In this document: positions 15,973 through 20,090 of the stretch, piece after piece
Numbering within the stretch: the stretch's first letter is position 1
Layout: the number at the start of each line of letters is the position of its first letter
Position numbers and translations under genes: made by a program
The notes under the pieces: generated by a model
Told to the model about the DNA's origin: nothing
Database searches by the model: none
The model's input: only the letters and a program-made list of their open reading frames with translations
NCBI GenBank assembly: GCA_015060075.1
Contig: SUZE01000007.1
Coordinates: 9,119 to 73,118, forward strand
Direction: 5' to 3'
DNA length: 64,000 nt
Source of the DNA: Rikenellaceae bacterium
Lineage (GTDB): Bacteria; Bacteroidota; Bacteroidia; Bacteroidales; Rikenellaceae

Positions 15973-16064
15973 CTTACATCGGCTTTTAGCCATTAGCCAT
16001 TGGCTTTTACGATTATCGCCTCGCAGATTATTCTGCGAGGCGATATTGCTATATTATTCAAGGT

Positions 16065-16688
16065 CTAATCATTTAAGTTTTTTAGATGGTATGCTATTGC
16101 ATCATTCATCATCTTGCTAACTTCGAGTACCTGATTTACAATAGTAACAAGATATGTTCTAACTGCTGGCATATTATGCATTATGGATTCAGCCGAAATC
16201 AATATTGCATCATCTGCATTGGAATATATCGCTTTGATGCACGATAAATTTTGGGAGATATGGTTACAAGCTTTGTATATAGCAAGCTCCTCTTTGGCTG
16301 TAAATGGTCTATCTTTGAGTGCATCCAAATTCTTTATATTGTATACAGGTGTTCTAACCAACAATATATTGCCTTGAAGTTCTAATCCAATACCCTTGCC
16401 TTCGCAGTTTAGCAAGATGAAAGTTCCGTTATCTCGGACTTCGTGAGGAAGATTTTCTGCTTGCAAGTATTCTTGTATAGCGCTCATACTAATTCCTGGC
16501 GTAAGAGCCTCTAAAACAGCCTTTGCCATACCATCGCCCTTTTCGGCTTGTCGTTGGAGTTTTGTCTTTTTTGCAGGCTGTTCTGTCTTCTGCTTTGGCG
16601 TTTTCTGTTTCTCCTGCTTCTCCGAAGCAACTCCCTGCTGCACACCCAATAATAAAAGGGAGAGGAGGATGGTTAATGTCTTTTTCAT
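16065..16688 (-). CDS. Secreted hypothetical protein, last gene of the AT-rich island
   Basis: It has a signal peptide (MKKTLTILLSLLLLGVQQGVAS), a Lys/Gln-rich linker and a globular domain of about 150 aa. A YbjN/chaperone-like fold is only a weak impression. The gap to the upstream gene is 11 nt. Confidence 0.6.
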   Translation of the reverse strand: MKKTLTILLSLLLLGVQQGVASEKQEKQKTPKQKTEQPAKKTKLQRQAEKGDGMAKAVLEALTPGISMSAIQEYLQAENLPHEVRDNGTFILLNCEGKGIGLELQGNILLVRTPVYNIKNLDALKDRPFTAKEELAIYKACNHISQNLSCIKAIYSNADDAILISAESIMHNMPAVRTYLVTIVNQVLEVSKMMNDAIAYHLKNLND

Positions 16689-16699
16689 AGAAATAAAGT

Positions 16700-17392
16700 T
16701 TAGTCGTTTTTGTCCTCTTGGAAAAGATTTAGTTGCGATTTTTTAGCCTCTTTTTGTCGTTTTCTGCGTTCAGAGGCAAGTTCTTTTTCTCGTTTTTTAC
16801 TCTCTTCTTTCGTCAAAGGAATAAATATATCATTGTTATTAGGATAGTTGCCTTCTATGTATAATTTTACTAATCCTGCATGAGATATAGGCTTTGTTAT
16901 ATCCCTAAATTCTGTATTGGTATTATAATCAAGGAGGACAATATCACTTTTATTTGATTGCTCTTTGATGCGAGATATAACATGTCTTACCTCTGGAATA
17001 TTATCTAATACCCATTTATATGTAGGTAGATAAATCTGCATACGAGCATCAAAATAATTTAGCAACTCTTTGCTCCTTGCTCCTTTTGCATGTCCTAGCA
17101 TTTTACCGTATTTACGAATAGTGCGTTTAACATCTTTTTGAGTATCATTTCTAAATGTTCGAAAATCGACTCCATGATGTTTGAATACTTTTAAGCCTTG
17201 CCATACCGACTCAACACAGGTTGCTGTTAAGCCATCTGTAAATGGAATGGGAATGTTTCCATGAGGATAAAATGGGCTTAATATCTGACCTGAATGTAAA
17301 GGGGAAGTTGATGTTATATCCAAAATAATGGCATTCGGAAATTCTGCCTTAATACTCTCTAATTTTCGTTTTTTATTTGCAATGTAAATCAT
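16700..17392 (-). CDS. Hypothetical protein with weak NADAR (YbiA/DUF1768)-like N-terminal motif and a Lys/Glu-rich tail; candidate antidote to the DarT-like protein
   Basis: Its start overlaps the upstream stop by 4 bp (ATGA at 17389-17392). The block SPFYPHGNIPIPFTDGLTATCVESVWQGLKVF resembles the NADAR block FSNF..DG...SxEHxFQxxKF. The C-terminal D..WG.G NADAR motif was not seen. Confidence 0.55.
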   Translation of the reverse strand: MIYIANKKRKLESIKAEFPNAIILDITSTSPLHSGQILSPFYPHGNIPIPFTDGLTATCVESVWQGLKVFKHHGVDFRTFRNDTQKDVKRTIRKYGKMLGHAKGARSKELLNYFDARMQIYLPTYKWVLDNIPEVRHVISRIKEQSNKSDIVLLDYNTNTEFRDITKPISHAGLVKLYIEGNYPNNNDIFIPLTKEESKKREKELASERRKRQKEAKKSQLNLFQEDKND

Positions 17393-18183
17393 CTTATATA
17401 TTCTGGGTTATCCAAATTTACAATAAATTCTTTTGGAATTACAGTTTTTACTAAAATTTCTGCTTGGTGATGCTTAAAATCGTTATCATCTCTACTTACA
17501 TAAGTTTTCTTGACCGCAACAAAATTAACTCTTTTTAAGTCATAAAGTGTTCCTCCAACATGATGGTTGCTATCTGTTGCATTTATATCGGAGAATAGAG
17601 TCCTTTCCCATAATGCTACATCTGTTTTGATTTTCAATAGTACCAATCTTTTGCCATCTTTTTTATGCCTATAAGCCATAGGATGATCCTCGCAAAAACT
17701 TAAACGAACATAATCTTGTAAATTATATTTCTTATCTAATTGTCGAGACTGCAAATCTCCTCCGGGTGATGGAATTTCTACGCCGTATGTATTGCACGAT
17801 TTCCACGATAATAGACCGCCATATTTTCTTATACTATCCAAGTTGCTTTCATCTGTAAAGTGGTAAAAATATCTTATGCCGTGCGATGCTAACAATTGTC
17901 TAATACTCTCACTATTCTCTTTTTTTGTAGGGAAAAGATTTTTCGTAATAGATAGTCGCAATGGTGAATCAATATTTGCGTTCTTTATCGGAGATGCTGG
18001 CTTAGAAACATCAGATGTTGTATTTATAGGTTTTCTTAACTCAGCTTCTTCATTAGACATTTTAATCAATAGGAATATGACTACTATAAGTGCAATAAGT
18101 CCTAAAATAGGGTGACACGCAAAACATCCTCCTACAATTATTATAGCCCACCAAGCACAGCCACAACCAAATCCCACATCCAT
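17389..18183 (-). CDS. Membrane-anchored DarT-like (DUF4433) ADP-ribosyltransferase
   Basis: The N-terminus has two hydrophobic helices (CAWWAIIIVGGCFAC, ILGLIALIVVIFLLI). The C-terminal domain carries DarT-type blocks YFYHFTDESNLDSIRKYGGLLS, DYVRLSFCEDHPMAY, LFSDINATDSN and HHQAEILVKTVIPKEFI, compared with DarT YH(I/F)T..NL.SI, DYVPFYF, FTD.NA and KQAE(F/V)LV. Confidence 0.7.
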   Translation of the reverse strand: MDVGFGCGCAWWAIIIVGGCFACHPILGLIALIVVIFLLIKMSNEEAELRKPINTTSDVSKPASPIKNANIDSPLRLSITKNLFPTKKENSESIRQLLASHGIRYFYHFTDESNLDSIRKYGGLLSWKSCNTYGVEIPSPGGDLQSRQLDKKYNLQDYVRLSFCEDHPMAYRHKKDGKRLVLLKIKTDVALWERTLFSDINATDSNHHVGGTLYDLKRVNFVAVKKTYVSRDDNDFKHHQAEILVKTVIPKEFIVNLDNPEYIR

Positions 18184-18226
18184 AATTTAAGTTTTTAAGA
18201 TTTAACAAATTTTATTATTATAGTAG

Positions 18227-19363
18227 TTAATAGTTTACAACTTTATCAAATGGTAGCCAACGACCATTTACATTTACTCCAATCCATCGCCATAAGCGGA
18301 TATCTTCTTGTTTGTATTTGGTGATAAACTTGAAATTTCTGTCATAAAAGTACCACTCATTTTCTCTAAGGAGGCAAATTATGTCATCTCTAAATTCAAC
18401 CTGTTCAAAGGAAGCATTTATAACTTGTTGTTCATTTGAATCTACAACGATAAAATACTTATCTCGTTTGGCACCAACGATATAAATATATTCACCTTCT
18501 TTCATGATTGGATATATCTCTTCGTAATTAAATGATATGATAACATTTCCTTCTATATCTGTAACACCCTTATAATAGGGACTTTCAAAGGCTATGCATA
18601 AATTATCGTCATACCTATAGCCTGGATATTTTAAGTTAAGCACAATTTCATTATCCAAGTTTATGTAACACATACCCTCATAATTATCGTTTATAGACAC
18701 CAAGCCATCATATTCTCTCCAACAATCTTCAAGCAATGATAAACTAGAAGCAAACGAAGCATTCCTTTTAAGAATAATTTCTCCTGATATTGAAAAAATA
18801 TAGATAGTATCTGGATGTCTATTTGTCGCCAAAATATATCCATCTAAAGTAAGTGAGATATCGTCATATTCAATAGGTATTATCATTCTACAATTCTTAT
18901 CTATTACTCCATATTTGTAGTCATTAAAGCCACCATGACCTCTTTTATACCTTACTTTTGCCAATCCAAATTCATTGAAATCGCCACAATATTCATATGG
19001 AGCATCTATACCATGACAAAGCGAAAAAGTTTTTGCGTCGTATATGAAACAATGCGGCTTGTTGTTTTCATCCATTTTTAGATGCCTATGCGTAGGATCA
19101 GTGTTATCTTTCAAACACGAAATATTCTCGTTGCTCCAATCTACTGATACAATATAAGCAGTACAAACTGAGTCAGGCGTTAAAGAGAGCATAAGAGTTT
19201 TTTCTATTACACCCTCTTTTTCGATAAAGAACTCTATCTTATAATTTTGGTTAACCTCTAAATCGAGGCAAACTATTTTGTTCGTTTTTAGAGCCTTTAC
19301 CTCTGATGAGCCAACAACCATTGTGCATGGTTTGTTACTGAAAATTCTTGCAATTGTCTTCAT
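18227..19363 (-). CDS. WG-repeat (KWG-like beta-propeller repeat) protein
   Basis: Repeated units of the form F.E.GLA.V......YG.ID..G..IIP..YD are present, for example FNEFGLAKVRYKRGHGGFNDYKYGVIDKNCRMIIPIEYDDI. No signal peptide is present. Confidence 0.7.
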   Translation of the reverse strand: MKTIARIFSNKPCTMVVGSSEVKALKTNKIVCLDLEVNQNYKIEFFIEKEGVIEKTLMLSLTPDSVCTAYIVSVDWSNENISCLKDNTDPTHRHLKMDENNKPHCFIYDAKTFSLCHGIDAPYEYCGDFNEFGLAKVRYKRGHGGFNDYKYGVIDKNCRMIIPIEYDDISLTLDGYILATNRHPDTIYIFSISGEIILKRNASFASSLSLLEDCWREYDGLVSINDNYEGMCYINLDNEIVLNLKYPGYRYDDNLCIAFESPYYKGVTDIEGNVIISFNYEEIYPIMKEGEYIYIVGAKRDKYFIVVDSNEQQVINASFEQVEFRDDIICLLRENEWYFYDRNFKFITKYKQEDIRLWRWIGVNVNGRWLPFDKVVNY

Positions 19364-19395
19364 ATCAGTACTATTTTCAGAGAGAGCTAAATTTA

Positions 19396-19581
19396 CTATT
19401 CATCGTCATAATCTTCATAATCACTACCGTCCCAATCAAAATCGTCATCTTCTTCATCGTTATAGCGACTATATCGATTTCGATTAACCATCTCCATGGC
19501 TTCCTCCATAGCTCTATCACATATATCATCCCAATCCTCCATTGACAACATGTCGTTGTCGTAATCATCAGTGTATCTCAT
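19396..19581 (-). CDS. Hyper-acidic 61-aa protein, first gene of the island
   Basis: The product is MRYTDDYDNDMLSMEDWDDICDRAMEEAMEMVNRNRYSRYNDEEDDDFDWDGSDYEDYDDE, with close to half of its residues Asp or Glu. It lies directly after the conserved leader and 32 nt before the WG-repeat gene. Confidence 0.55.
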   Translation of the reverse strand: MRYTDDYDNDMLSMEDWDDICDRAMEEAMEMVNRNRYSRYNDEEDDDFDWDGSDYEDYDDE

Positions 19582-19908
19582 AATATTTAAGTTGTTTTTT
19601 GCCCACCAACCCCGAATAAGGCGTTATTATAAATAAAGAAAGTGTGAGGTTGATTTTCGTTTATTTATAAGAAGGTTGTGGAATGACCTTGGAAGAATAA
19701 ACGCTACAATGCCTCACACCTGTATATAGCAACATATCGGTACAAGACATACCAACAGCATATATACAAGAAATGAGTGTTGCTCGTCTGCCCTCTTCCT
19801 TTGAAAACTTCCACATTTTCTTATAAGGACTTCGAAAAACACTTTCTATATGTCTGCAACCCAACGGACTGCACCACAAATATAGCAACTTATCTCGAAA
19901 AGTGCAAA
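19582..19908 (-). promoter_or_regulatory. Promoter plus a conserved 5' leader of about 290 nt (copy a of three)
   Basis: On the minus strand, -33 TTTG is at 19905-19908 and -7 TATATTTG is at 19877-19884, with 20-nt spacing. The leader aligns along its length with 35581-35913 and, more distantly, with 27162-27439. All three end in ccttattcggggttggtgggcaaa just before the ATG. Confidence 0.65.
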
Positions 19909-20090
19909 AAATAAGAGCTAACGGTAAAAAGAGAAGTAGTTTTCCGCTTTCCGTTTTAACCCTGCTACGCAGGCTTTTCTTCCTTGCGGCTCGGAAAAAT
20001 GTAAATAAATTTACTTTTTTCGCTCGCTCCGCATCGTCGGTTCCGTTTTGTTTTGTATCTTTGTAAAACAGATACAAAACAGAGATTGGT

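Follow-up and report, generated by a model that had tools for sequence, protein, structure and literature searches.

A predicted membrane-anchored DarT1-like toxin and its NADAR-like partner in a mobile cassette of gut Bacteroidales

The closest described relatives of the locus reported here are the DarT toxin-antitoxin systems. In DarT1-NADAR (DarTG1; PDB 8baq, 8bat), a guanine-specific ADP-ribosyltransferase (ART) of the DarT fold is encoded directly upstream of, and overlapping, the gene of a NADAR-fold hydrolase, the two genes forming a mobile cassette. The catalytic residues of DarT1 (M71, R52 and D54) and the roles of its other residues have been described together with those of the NADAR partner (E88, K95 and D171 in E. 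coli C7 numbering), and the residue that coordinates the base is N104 in E. coli C7 DarT1 as opposed to H119 in DarT2 (PMC11543638). In the second type of system, DarT2-DarG (DarTG2; Thermus aquaticus, M. tuberculosis; PDB 7omv, 7omu), the partner is the macrodomain protein DarG. The characterised DarT toxins are, as far as known, soluble, as the first-pass annotation of this DNA had stated: the searchable literature yielded no membrane-anchored DarT, and E. coli C7 DarT1 is a compact protein of 207 aa that has no N-terminal extension. A general question about DarT toxins is by what means they avoid the DNA of the host and come to act on that of a phage.

Membrane attachment of a DNA-targeting effector has been described in SNIPE, a defence system based on a membrane-bound GIY-YIG nuclease. 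[quoted passage not shown]

Here we describe a locus in a 64,000-nucleotide stretch of a Rikenellaceae genome assembly (the window) that very probably encodes a DarT1-like toxin anchored in the membrane, together with a NADAR-like antitoxin. The explanation that we favour for the whole, and consider reasonably probable, is a DarTG1-like toxin-antitoxin system that moves horizontally on a small low-GC cassette and probably serves against phages, and in which the anchor would restrict the access of the toxin to DNA.

A DarT-family toxin and a DUF6939 partner

The first-pass annotation had proposed a protein in which an N-terminal two-helix hairpin and a linker precede a DarT-like ART domain, and this three-part layout holds for the 264-aa toxin (Table 1). 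The open reading frame is real and lies on the minus strand, which had been left unstated. Three points were absent from that annotation: the DUF6939/NADAR-like antitoxin, the affinity to DarT1 rather than DarT2, and the modular exchange of the anchor.

Table 1. Features of the cassette and of the encoded toxin, in window coordinates
Feature	Position	Strand	Basis or remark
Low-GC islet holding the cassette	16010..20000		GC 0.31-0.38 vs flanks 0.48-0.52
Islet portion conserved with locus L013 (97-100% DNA identity)	~16010-17960		DNA comparison
Accessory third gene, 207 aa, signal-peptide-like N-terminus	16065..16688	-	11 nt downstream of antitoxin
DUF6939 protein, 230 aa, divergent NADAR-like predicted antitoxin	16700..17392	-	Profile, fold, alignment
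Membrane-anchored DarT-like toxin (predicted), complete CDS, 264 aa, ATG start	17389..18183	-	Sequence identical to MBE6212091.1 (Rikenellaceae MAG)
DarT ADP-ribosyltransferase domain, residues 92-264	17392..17910	-	Profile matches and conserved residues
Codon of E242, predicted catalytic Glu of QAE motif	17458..17460	-	Aligned with E152 (E. coli C7 DarT1) and E160 (Thermus DarT2)
Clade-specific conserved basic motif LRLSITKNLFPTKKENS, residues 75-91, first part of non-swapped module	17911..17961	-	Conservation
Disordered S/T/P/N/K-rich linker, residues 41-74, contains recombination breakpoint	17962..18063	-	Length varies among homologues
Hydrophobic helix 2, residues 26-40, ILGLIALIVVIFLLI, strong transmembrane segment	18064..18108	-	Kyte-Doolittle 2.62
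Hairpin turn H24-P25, predicted periplasmic	18109..18114	-	No K/R in turn in 25/25 aligned hairpin proteins
Hydrophobic helix 1, residues 4-23, FGCGCAWWAIIIVGGCFAC, Cys-rich, weaker helix	18115..18174	-	Kyte-Doolittle 1.86

By profile, the assignment of the C-terminal domain to the DarT family lies far beyond chance, as the annotation had anticipated. Pfam PF14487 (DarT/DUF4433) matches residues 107-256 with E=5.1e-26 (92.1 bits, cut-off 22.5), the PADLOC DarT model matches at 9.1e-18, and profile alignments agree; the motifs that had been quoted are all present (YHFT..NL.SI at residues 107-118, DYVRLSF at 157-163, FSDINA at 197-202 and HQAEILV at 239-245). The NCBIfam equivalog model toxin_DarT (NF048013) gives 45.7 bits, short of its cut-off of 150. 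Judged by these models, the protein belongs to the DarT family without being an equivalog of canonical type II DarT. Y107, H108, R147, D150, M169, N201 and E242 are invariant in the domain, and among 25 aligned hairpin proteins this holds for Y107, H108 and T110 of the YHxT NAD-site motif as well as for E242 of QAE. In the AlphaFold2 model of the full toxin the DarT domain came out poorly (mean pLDDT 45.6), and single-sequence searches of the PDB with toxin and antitoxin gave no useful match for either, DarT structures being reached by profiles only.

Within the family the toxin is closest to guanine-specific DarT1 and is probably guanine-directed as well. Aligned by hhalign, the clade profile matches E. 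coli C7 DarT1 with 95.5% probability (E=1.5e-8, 146 columns, starting at DarT1 residue 4) and places M169 on M71, N201 on the base-coordinating Asn and E242 on the catalytic Glu. The E. coli C7 locus was obtained via a DNA search; a rebuilt DarT1 fragment used as query returned fragments only. The HMM profile also matches Thermus DarT2 (7omv, E=3e-4) and DarT1 (8baq, E=0.012), and in profile alignments E242 falls on the catalytic Glu of both types. With DarT2 the toxin has in common the Pfam DarT family, the QAE and YHxT motifs and the DY-V..F strand. However, N201 falls on the PTNAAS Asn of DarT1, at the position that His119 takes in DarT2, DarT2 carries no membrane anchor, and the partner of this toxin is not the macrodomain DarG. 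The invariant R147 and D150 lie in a loop matching R52/D54 of DarT1, where the two alignments differ by at least two residues or place a gap. A soluble relative from Sutterella, 42% identical, adjoins a canonical DarT1-associated NADAR. The differences from DarT1 itself are 91 extra N-terminal residues (hairpin, linker and basic motif) and a catalytic domain only ~32% identical over aligned columns.

As in DarT1-NADAR, the second gene lies directly downstream, its start overlapping the toxin stop by 4 nt (ATGA). Its product matches Pfam DUF6939 at 2.5e-64, and this pairing of DarT with DUF6939 was found in nine of ten clade loci examined, in unrelated housekeeping neighbourhoods. The relationship to NADAR is marginal by sequence (NADAR-DarT1 model, 27.3 bits with the cut-off at 27; hhalign of DUF6939 with NADAR, E=9e-5 to 3.5e-4 and probability 37-59%, in the N-terminal half only) and clear by fold: the AlphaFold2 model is confident (pLDDT 91), and Foldseek against the PDB returned as its sole meaningful match the G. 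lovleyi DarT1-associated NADAR 8bat (prob 1.00, TM 0.47-0.49, 161 columns). The invariant E61 and K68 of DUF6939 align exactly with the catalytic E88 and K95 of E. coli C7 NADAR, at the same 7-residue spacing. The alignment stops short of D171, for which the invariant D155 in LLDYNTN is a candidate equivalent. We read the protein as a divergent NADAR-like eraser, which differs from the described NADAR partners in belonging to a separate Pfam family and in an extra C-terminal K/R-rich helix (residues 195-223). We found no literature on DUF6939, a family with 5,836 hits and thousands of members in gut Bacteroidales, to which a likely function as NADAR-type ADP-ribose eraser and antitoxin can now be assigned.

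The N-terminal hairpin, its start site and its predicted topology

The two hydrophobic stretches singled out in the first reading, GFGCGCAWWAIIIVGGCFAC (residues 4-23) and PILGLIALIVVIFLLI (residues 25-40), are both present. Kyte-Doolittle averages over 19-residue windows, computed on P0001, a protein 97% identical to the window toxin with the same first 66 residues, are 1.86 (residues 5-23) and 2.62 (residues 25-43); the hydrophobicity of helix 1 is marginal. AlphaFold2 places helices at residues 7-23 and 25-49; averaged in blocks of 10 residues, pLDDT is 79-86 across residues 11-40, and it drops to ~32 in the linker, consistent with disorder. A linker of about 50 aa had been noted; it is present and disordered, at ~35-50 aa. 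Helix 1 opens with a GCGC motif that is invariant within a sub-group of 13 sequences, and the hairpin is kept as a feature in ~30 homologue clusters despite sequence divergence. A signal peptide or lipoprotein N-terminus was considered and rejected in view of the acidic N-tail, a hydrophobic stretch as long as 37 aa with a central His-Pro, and the absence of a lipobox context.

Whether the hairpin is made at all depends on the start codon. An in-frame TAA two codons upstream of the ATG makes a longer form of the toxin impossible. A shorter, soluble product could start at Met42, whose ATG directly follows helix 2 in the window, leaving the upstream hydrophobic codons untranslated or confined to a minor isoform; Bacteroidota have no strong Shine-Dalgarno signals, which makes sequence by itself a poor guide to their start sites. 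However, a Met near codon 42 is limited to 6 of the 25 aligned proteins with a hairpin, the window toxin included, the frame stays open and hydrophobic across the ~30 diverged clusters, and swapped modules always recreate an in-frame hairpin. Between the window and the related locus L006, moreover, the first 47 codons differ at 8, 2 and 12 first, second and third codon positions (22 in total; 10 synonymous and 9 conservative changes), a distribution that indicates protein-coding constraint. The start codon does not appear to lie downstream of the hydrophobic region, which would have undone the first reading, and judged by these comparisons the hairpin is translated. Met42 initiation is scarcely credible overall, and as the source of the sole product it is largely refuted.

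Topology was called from hydropathy, K/R distribution and the AlphaFold2 helices. Summed over the 25 hairpin proteins, the turns contain no K/R residue, the N-tails contain 12 and the 15-aa C-terminal flanks 42. This distribution, with K/R in the flanks and none in the turns, predicts a cytoplasmic catalytic domain behind a membrane hairpin; the net charge of the flanks is acidic, however, and the positive-inside argument is weaker for it. NAD+, the substrate of the toxin, is cytoplasmic, and the predicted antitoxin has no signal peptide. As a prediction, the cytoplasmic placement proposed for the ART domain is supported by all three observations. With helix 1 marginal, a single-span, N-out topology is possible and would still leave DarT in the cytoplasm.

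Mobility of the cassette and exchange of its anchor

The insertion sites of the cassette differ between genomes. No recognisable defence island surrounds it, and PADLOC recognises the toxin alone. Searches of phage collections gave no match to toxin or antitoxin, and plasmid collections gave distant DarTs only. The accessory third gene has no family match; it is found in three of the cassettes examined and is absent from the others. An upstream WG-repeat gene and an acidic 61-aa ORF were rejected as cassette parts, being conserved with it only in L009, a 97%-identical Rikenellaceae MAG that has upstream ORFs of matching sizes in the same order.

This layout, with a variable N-terminal module, a linker, a C-terminal toxin and a neutraliser immediately downstream, resembles that of toxin-immunity pairs, and one could propose an interbacterial (polymorphic) toxin whose hydrophobic module mediates export or entry into target cells and whose immunity protein is DUF6939. 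Cassettes do swap their N-terminal modules, some carry the signal-peptide gene alongside, Tre1-Tri1 is a precedent for enzymatic immunity against an ART effector, and certain T6SS effectors have N-terminal TM domains. Yet domain searches with the toxin detected no trafficking domain, whether PAAR, prePAAR, MIX, Rhs, LXG or another, and neither a trafficking domain nor an Eag-type chaperone among its neighbours; the ~10 neighbourhoods are all housekeeping and contain no secretion-system genes. The acidic N-terminus has neither a signal-peptide n-region nor a cleavage motif. Polymorphic toxins, moreover, vary at the toxin end and conserve the N-terminus, the reverse of the pattern here, and the nearest characterised relatives are intracellular toxin-antitoxin and defence systems. 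We regard this alternative as quite improbable.

A natural deletion, seen in three independent sources, removes the catalytic C-terminus of the toxin and the N-terminus of the antitoxin together and leaves the hairpin intact, which indicates that the toxic part is the ART domain. The same allele bears on the idea of a dual-action abortive-infection protein, in which the hairpin would be a second, membrane-damaging effector of the holin or type I toxin kind. Short two-TM modules commonly do the killing in CBASS, Pycsar and retron systems, and a Cys/Gly-rich hairpin could support oligomerisation. Against this, the inactivated allele keeps its hairpin, the only neutraliser retained is an ADP-ribose eraser, the DarT catalytic residues are invariant, and the hairpin sequence drifts freely and is replaced by single TMs in sister branches. 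A second effector is therefore highly improbable.

The anchor and linker together form a recombining, exchangeable module. N-terminal regions with only 21-35% identity sit on DarT domains 93-98% identical to that of the window, and at the DNA level L013 matches the window at 97-100% identity between positions 17960 and 16010 and no better than randomly upstream of ~18000, which puts a sharp breakpoint near codon 70 (roughly 17940-18000), inside the linker. A search of 1.84 billion representative proteins with the anchor profile found nothing outside the clade and no fusions to other effectors. The module diverges fast and may tune specificity too.

This last point can be taken further: hairpin and linker might act as a sensor or specificity adapter for a membrane component of phage or host, such as injection machinery, a holin or a superinfection-exclusion protein, or the linker might be cleaved on infection to release or activate DarT. 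Exchange of such divergent anchors between nearly identical catalytic modules fits this proposal, as do the wide variation in linker length among homologues, the small two-TM ORFs directly upstream in L006 and L013, and the adapter role suggested for the SNIPE N-terminus. On the other hand, the periplasmic turn has only 2-8 residues and the helices keep mainly generic hydrophobicity; with the GCGC motif and one Gly as sole invariants, in one sub-group only, little surface is left for recognition. A simple anchor that recombines and is under relaxed constraint would be expected to give the same pattern, and no conserved partner gene was found among the loci examined. In either form, the sensor proposal is unlikely, and it extends the membrane-anchored toxin-antitoxin reading more than it replaces it.

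Comparison with SNIPE and a possible role for the anchor

Under the toxin-antitoxin reading, the hairpin and a disordered leash of ~35-50 residues would hold the catalytic domain in the cytoplasm beside the membrane. The toxin would be a guanine-directed DNA ADP-ribosyltransferase of the DarT family, and the translationally coupled DUF6939 hydrolase would strip ADP-ribose as an enzymatic antitoxin. The tether would limit access to the nucleoid, lowering self-toxicity, and would bias activity to DNA at the membrane, such as an entering or membrane-associated replicating phage genome; the first-pass annotation had raised both ideas, as alternatives. Retention of the enzymatic antitoxin implies that tethering alone does not render the toxin safe. 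We infer a defence role for the cassette; the architecture suggests that membrane location helps to decide which DNA a DarT toxin attacks.

The spatial-restriction role has a direct experimental precedent in SNIPE, and we regard it as plausible but tentative. Both proteins would combine an N-terminal anchor with a DNA-targeting effector and a cytoplasmic catalytic domain, features that, for the toxin described here, are predictions. In both the N-terminal region is poorly conserved and variable in length, SNIPE having mostly one TM, sometimes two, and other devices in other homologues. Prevention of autoimmunity by the tether is a feature of SNIPE and extends to this toxin by analogy. The two proteins share neither sequence nor fold, the toxin having no DUF4041 or GIY-YIG domain (Pfam detects DarT only). 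SNIPE cleaves DNA, whereas the chemistry predicted for the toxin is reversible ADP-ribosylation of a base, and the present system keeps an eraser antitoxin. The resemblance, as far as the analogy carries, is functional and architectural and is not one of family membership.

A broader and more doubtful possibility is that the DarT1-like clade of gut Bacteroidales tells self from non-self by subcellular position through interchangeable inner-membrane anchors. The enzyme would then mark phage DNA that is incoming or associated with the membrane, the NADAR-like eraser would remove stray chromosomal marks, and the range of phages or entry routes covered would depend on the rapidly swapped anchor and linker. 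If true, the principle seen in SNIPE would have been reached independently, with a reversible DNA-modifying effector. Swappable anchors would thus extend location as a self/non-self cue from a nuclease to reversible DNA modification. A naturally tethered DarT would also offer a simple experimental handle on the question of how host DNA is spared.

Elsewhere in the clade, relatives of 403-414 aa have N-termini (MIFKWLKKLFGL and similar) that were considered as amphipathic membrane-targeting segments. The candidate was rejected: 41% of the window's ordinary N-termini score at or above the threshold of 0.45, and a MinD sequence scores only 0.27 on the same measure. That amphipathic N-termini make the whole clade membrane-associated remains a weak lead. 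In other branches of the clade the anchor is a single TM (P0106/P0118/L011, P0087/P0101 and P0031).

A divergent DarT toxin and its DUF6939 partner

All the sequence blocks from which the first-pass annotation had recognized a DarT toxin are present in the 264-aa protein: YHFT..NL.SI at residues 107-118, DYVRLSF at 157-163, FSDINA at 197-202 and HQAEILV at 239-245. Residues 107-256 match the Pfam DarT family (PF14487, E=5.1e-26) and the protein matches PADLOC DarT at 9.1e-18. Against the NCBIfam equivalog for canonical DarT it scores 45.7 bits, far under the cut-off of 150, and the toxin is thus a divergent member of the DarT family. An identical protein, MBE6212091.1 from a Rikenellaceae MAG, is annotated as 'DUF4433 domain-containing protein'.

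A profile of the toxin's clade matches Thermus DarT2 (7omv, E=3e-4), a DarTG fusion (7omu) and E. coli C7 DarT1 (8baq, E=0.012). Taking the E. coli C7 DarT1-NADAR locus for comparison, hhalign aligned the clade profile with DarT1 at 95.5% probability (E=1.5e-8, 146 columns, 32% identity). Using the DarT1 residue roles of Schuller et al. 2023 (PMC11543638), M71 aligns with the invariant toxin residue M169 and the catalytic Glu with E242. The base-coordinating Asn of DarT1 corresponds to the invariant N201, whereas DarT2 has His119 at this position. R147 and D150 are also invariant and lie in the loop of DarT1 R52 and D54, where the alignment is ambiguous.

The antitoxin matches DUF6939 at 2.5e-64 and barely reaches the NADAR-DarT1 model (27.3 bits, cut-off 27). 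Its AlphaFold2 model is confident (pLDDT 91) and finds a sole meaningful fold match in the PDB, the DarT1-associated NADAR of Geobacter lovleyi (8bat; prob 1.00, TM 0.47-0.49, 161 columns), the next match having E>5. With hhalign, the antitoxin aligns with E. coli C7 NADAR at E=3.5e-4 and with a two-sequence NADAR alignment at E=9.4e-5. VESVWQGLKVF is thereby paired with NADAR VESAFQASKVF, so that the invariant antitoxin residues E61 and K68 fall exactly on catalytic E88 and K95; the third catalytic residue, D171, is beyond the alignment. Past the aligned region, residues 195-223 form a long K/R-rich C-terminal helix, KKREKELASERRKRQKEAKK, whereas NEEAE makes the toxin flank near the membrane acidic; the two might meet through their charges, or DNA might be bound.

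A Sutterella sp. MAG (L012:3968-5172) encodes a 183-aa soluble DarT, 42% identical to the catalytic domain in the window, followed by a canonical DarT1-associated NADAR (MAVRPFFV...) and adjoining a transposase. This pairing ties the clade to the DarT1 lineage, and the locus, being proteobacterial, connects classical DarTG1 with the clade in Bacteroidales. We conclude that the module is of the DarT1/NADAR type with a divergent eraser, and infer guanine specificity for the toxin.

The N-terminal hairpin as a predicted, exchangeable membrane anchor

The two hydrophobic helices reported earlier occupy residues 4-23 (GFGCGCAWWAIIIVGGCFAC) and 25-40 (PILGLIALIVVIFLLI), within the reading frame. An in-frame TAA lies two codons 5' of the ATG, after an AT-rich spacer of 43 nt from the preceding gene, so the hydrophobic N-terminus is no artefact of an over-extended ORF. 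A soluble product initiated at Met42 is disfavoured on two grounds. Counting the window, only 6 of 25 aligned hairpin proteins have a Met to match it, and the hairpin is under coding constraint: over the first 47 codons, the window is separated from the related locus L006 by 10 synonymous changes and 9 conservative replacements of a hydrophobic kind, with only 2 of the 22 nucleotide differences at codon position 2, a pattern that reads as a protein-coding signature.

A search of 5.8 billion clustered proteins returned 457 relatives of the toxin, and N-termini were surveyed in the best 120 clusters and 4 genome loci. The anchor proposed by the first-pass annotation recurs: about 30 of the best 120 clusters, 245-310 aa in length, carry a pair of N-terminal hydrophobic segments (P0001-P0031 without P0014, plus P0034 and P0084). 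Helix 1 of these homologues is moderately hydrophobic (Kyte-Doolittle about 1.6-2.1) and helix 2 strongly so (about 2.2-3.0). The hairpin is present throughout these clusters despite sequence drift; in a 13-sequence sub-group, invariance is confined to a GCGC motif and G28, with the turn HP-I-x-G mostly kept. AlphaFold2 models helices at residues 7-23 and 25-49; averaged in blocks of 10 residues, pLDDT is 79-86 across residues 11-40. The linker that follows, at about 32 pLDDT, is suggested to be disordered.

Topology was gauged by counting K/R in 25 homologues (positive-inside test). The N-tails hold 12, the turn none and the 15 residues past helix 2 hold 42; five 'core' K/R all lie at the C-terminal edge, and the turn frequently contains D, E or H. 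This distribution favours an N-in/C-in hairpin with a periplasmic turn. Helix 1 is marginal and a single-span N-out form is a possible alternative. Under either topology the DarT domain is predicted to be cytoplasmic, as had been proposed, consistent with an enzyme that requires NAD+ and DNA and with an antitoxin free of a signal peptide.

The anchor varies independently of the toxin domain. Clusters P0004-P0008 share 93-98% identity with the window across the DarT domain (residues 74-264) but only 21-35% across the N-terminal 73 residues; P0011 shows the converse, its N-terminal region being 63% identical (81% for the hairpin alone) and its catalytic domain only 64%. In DNA sequence, the window matches the related locus L013 at 97-100% identity between about 17960 and about 16010, a stretch that takes in the catalytic domain together with the antitoxin and third genes; upstream of about 18000 the identity is random. 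The breakpoint falls around codons 65-75, just ahead of the conserved motif LRLSITKNLFPTKK. Each anchor variant occurs in several samples and therefore does not reflect an assembly chimera. Searching 1.84 billion representative proteins with an anchor profile found only members of the toxin's clade; the anchor is thus not a widely shared domain. A neighbour-joining tree of catalytic domains puts the hairpin proteins in a single group and single-TM forms at no fewer than three other places. The clade thus keeps some membrane anchor plus a flexible leash but no particular sequence, and anchor and linker together are an exchangeable module, a new finding. A rival reading, in which the anchor acts as sensor or adapter, agrees with its hypervariability, but the exposed turn is tiny.

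Most non-TM relatives (P0035-P0120, 403-428 aa; for example L008:6001-7242) have N-terminal extensions of about 250 aa in which no Pfam domain was found. These open, for example, with MIFKWLKKLFGL or MGFFDFFRKL and continue as charged coiled-coil-like sequence. Membrane binding of the 403-414-aa relatives through an N-terminal amphipathic helix was considered but did not hold up against a control.

Proposed tethering and a natural deletion allele

Three elements make up the reading with the best support: the toxin would be an inner-membrane-tethered DarT1-like DNA ADP-ribosyltransferase, the co-translated NADAR-like hydrolase would wipe off stray activity, and the tether would limit access to the nucleoid and favour DNA at the membrane. 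SNIPE, a membrane-bound GIY-YIG nuclease, is the closest functional precedent. Without its TM segment the nuclease is toxic and goes to the nucleoid, and SNIPE cuts phage DNA during injection; its N-termini are of very low conservation and variable length, with one TM in 59% and two in 7% (bioRxiv 10.1101/2025.11.03.685801). The parallel to the variable anchors of the toxin is close, but the proteins are unrelated.

A natural allele in Rikenellaceae MAG SIG179 (L009:4001-5002) has lost about 213 bp, equivalent to about 17275-17495 of the window. The deletion fuses DarT at codon 229 with DUF6939 at about codon 38. The toxin loses its C-terminus from residue 229, HQAEILV included, and the antitoxin its first ~38 codons, while the hairpin stays intact. 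Besides L009, the 246-aa product occurs in three other, independent sources (P0247, P0250, P0251). The allele supports real ART-dependent toxicity. It argues, together with the eraser antitoxin and the invariant ART residues, against the hairpin acting as a membrane-damaging effector. Nor is an interbacterial polymorphic toxin favoured: trafficking domains are lacking, and none of the contexts examined holds secretion genes.

Literature searches found no paper on DUF6939 and none that describes a DarT with a transmembrane segment or other membrane anchor. The toxin family, the fold of its NADAR-like partner and the toxin-antitoxin logic are of known kinds; the new variations are the architecture with its membrane anchor, the exchange of anchors as modules and an antitoxin of the DUF6939 family.

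Genomic setting

Features of the cassette and of related loci
Locus	Coordinates	Strand	Feature
Window	16065..16688	minus	third gene, 207 aa, 11 nt past antitoxin, signal-peptide-like N-terminus MKKTLTILLSLLLLGVQQGVASE
Window	16700..17392	minus	DUF6939 antitoxin, start 4 nt inside toxin end (ATGA)
Window	17389..18183	minus	toxin, 264 aa, ATG start
Window	18227-19363	minus	378-aa WG_beta_rep protein
Window	19396-19581	minus	61-aa extremely acidic ORF (D, E, Y rich)
L001			pair adjoins purT-like genes
L005, L010			pair adjoins pckA
L006, L013			pair between radA and rseP-dxr
L006	5784-5969		two-hydrophobic-helix ORF, 61 aa, 31 nt upstream of anchored DarT
L013	3734-3943		two-hydrophobic-helix ORF, 69 aa, 57 nt upstream of anchored DarT
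L008 (Bacteroides genome)			pair adjoins Mob gene; toxin form 413 aa, non-TM
L011 (Paludibacteraceae)			pair present; toxin form 554 aa, single N-terminal TM
L015			pair present; toxin form 312 aa, single TM

The DarT and DUF6939 pair is found in 9 of the 10 clade loci examined, amid unrelated housekeeping genes. In the window the cassette occupies a low-GC islet (about 16010-20000; GC 0.31-0.38, flanks 0.48-0.52). No homologues of toxin or antitoxin were found in 50,697 phage records, and plasmids yielded only distant DarTs. The third gene, which has no family match, recurs in L013 (97% identity) and L001 (26% identity, E=3e-12), is absent from L005 and L006, and is treated as accessory. Were it a periplasmic partner for the membrane-anchored toxin, for which it is a candidate, this would be of interest.

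The WG_beta_rep and acidic ORFs lie upstream of the toxin in the same islet; ORFs matching them in size and order also lie upstream in L009, a 97%-identical Rikenellaceae MAG. The cassette has no such association at the other loci examined. The small two-helix ORFs directly upstream of the toxin in L006 and L013 differ in sequence from each other, and the window has no equivalent.

The exception among the 10 loci, L014, carries a C-terminally extended variant (P0084, L014:3304-4428); P0084 and P0034 are hairpin-DarTs that end in an additional domain about 100 aa long. At its locus, P0084 stands without a DUF6939 gene and adjoins an Xre-type HTH gene as well as two serine recombinases (resolvases), which suggests another neutraliser and a mobile element.
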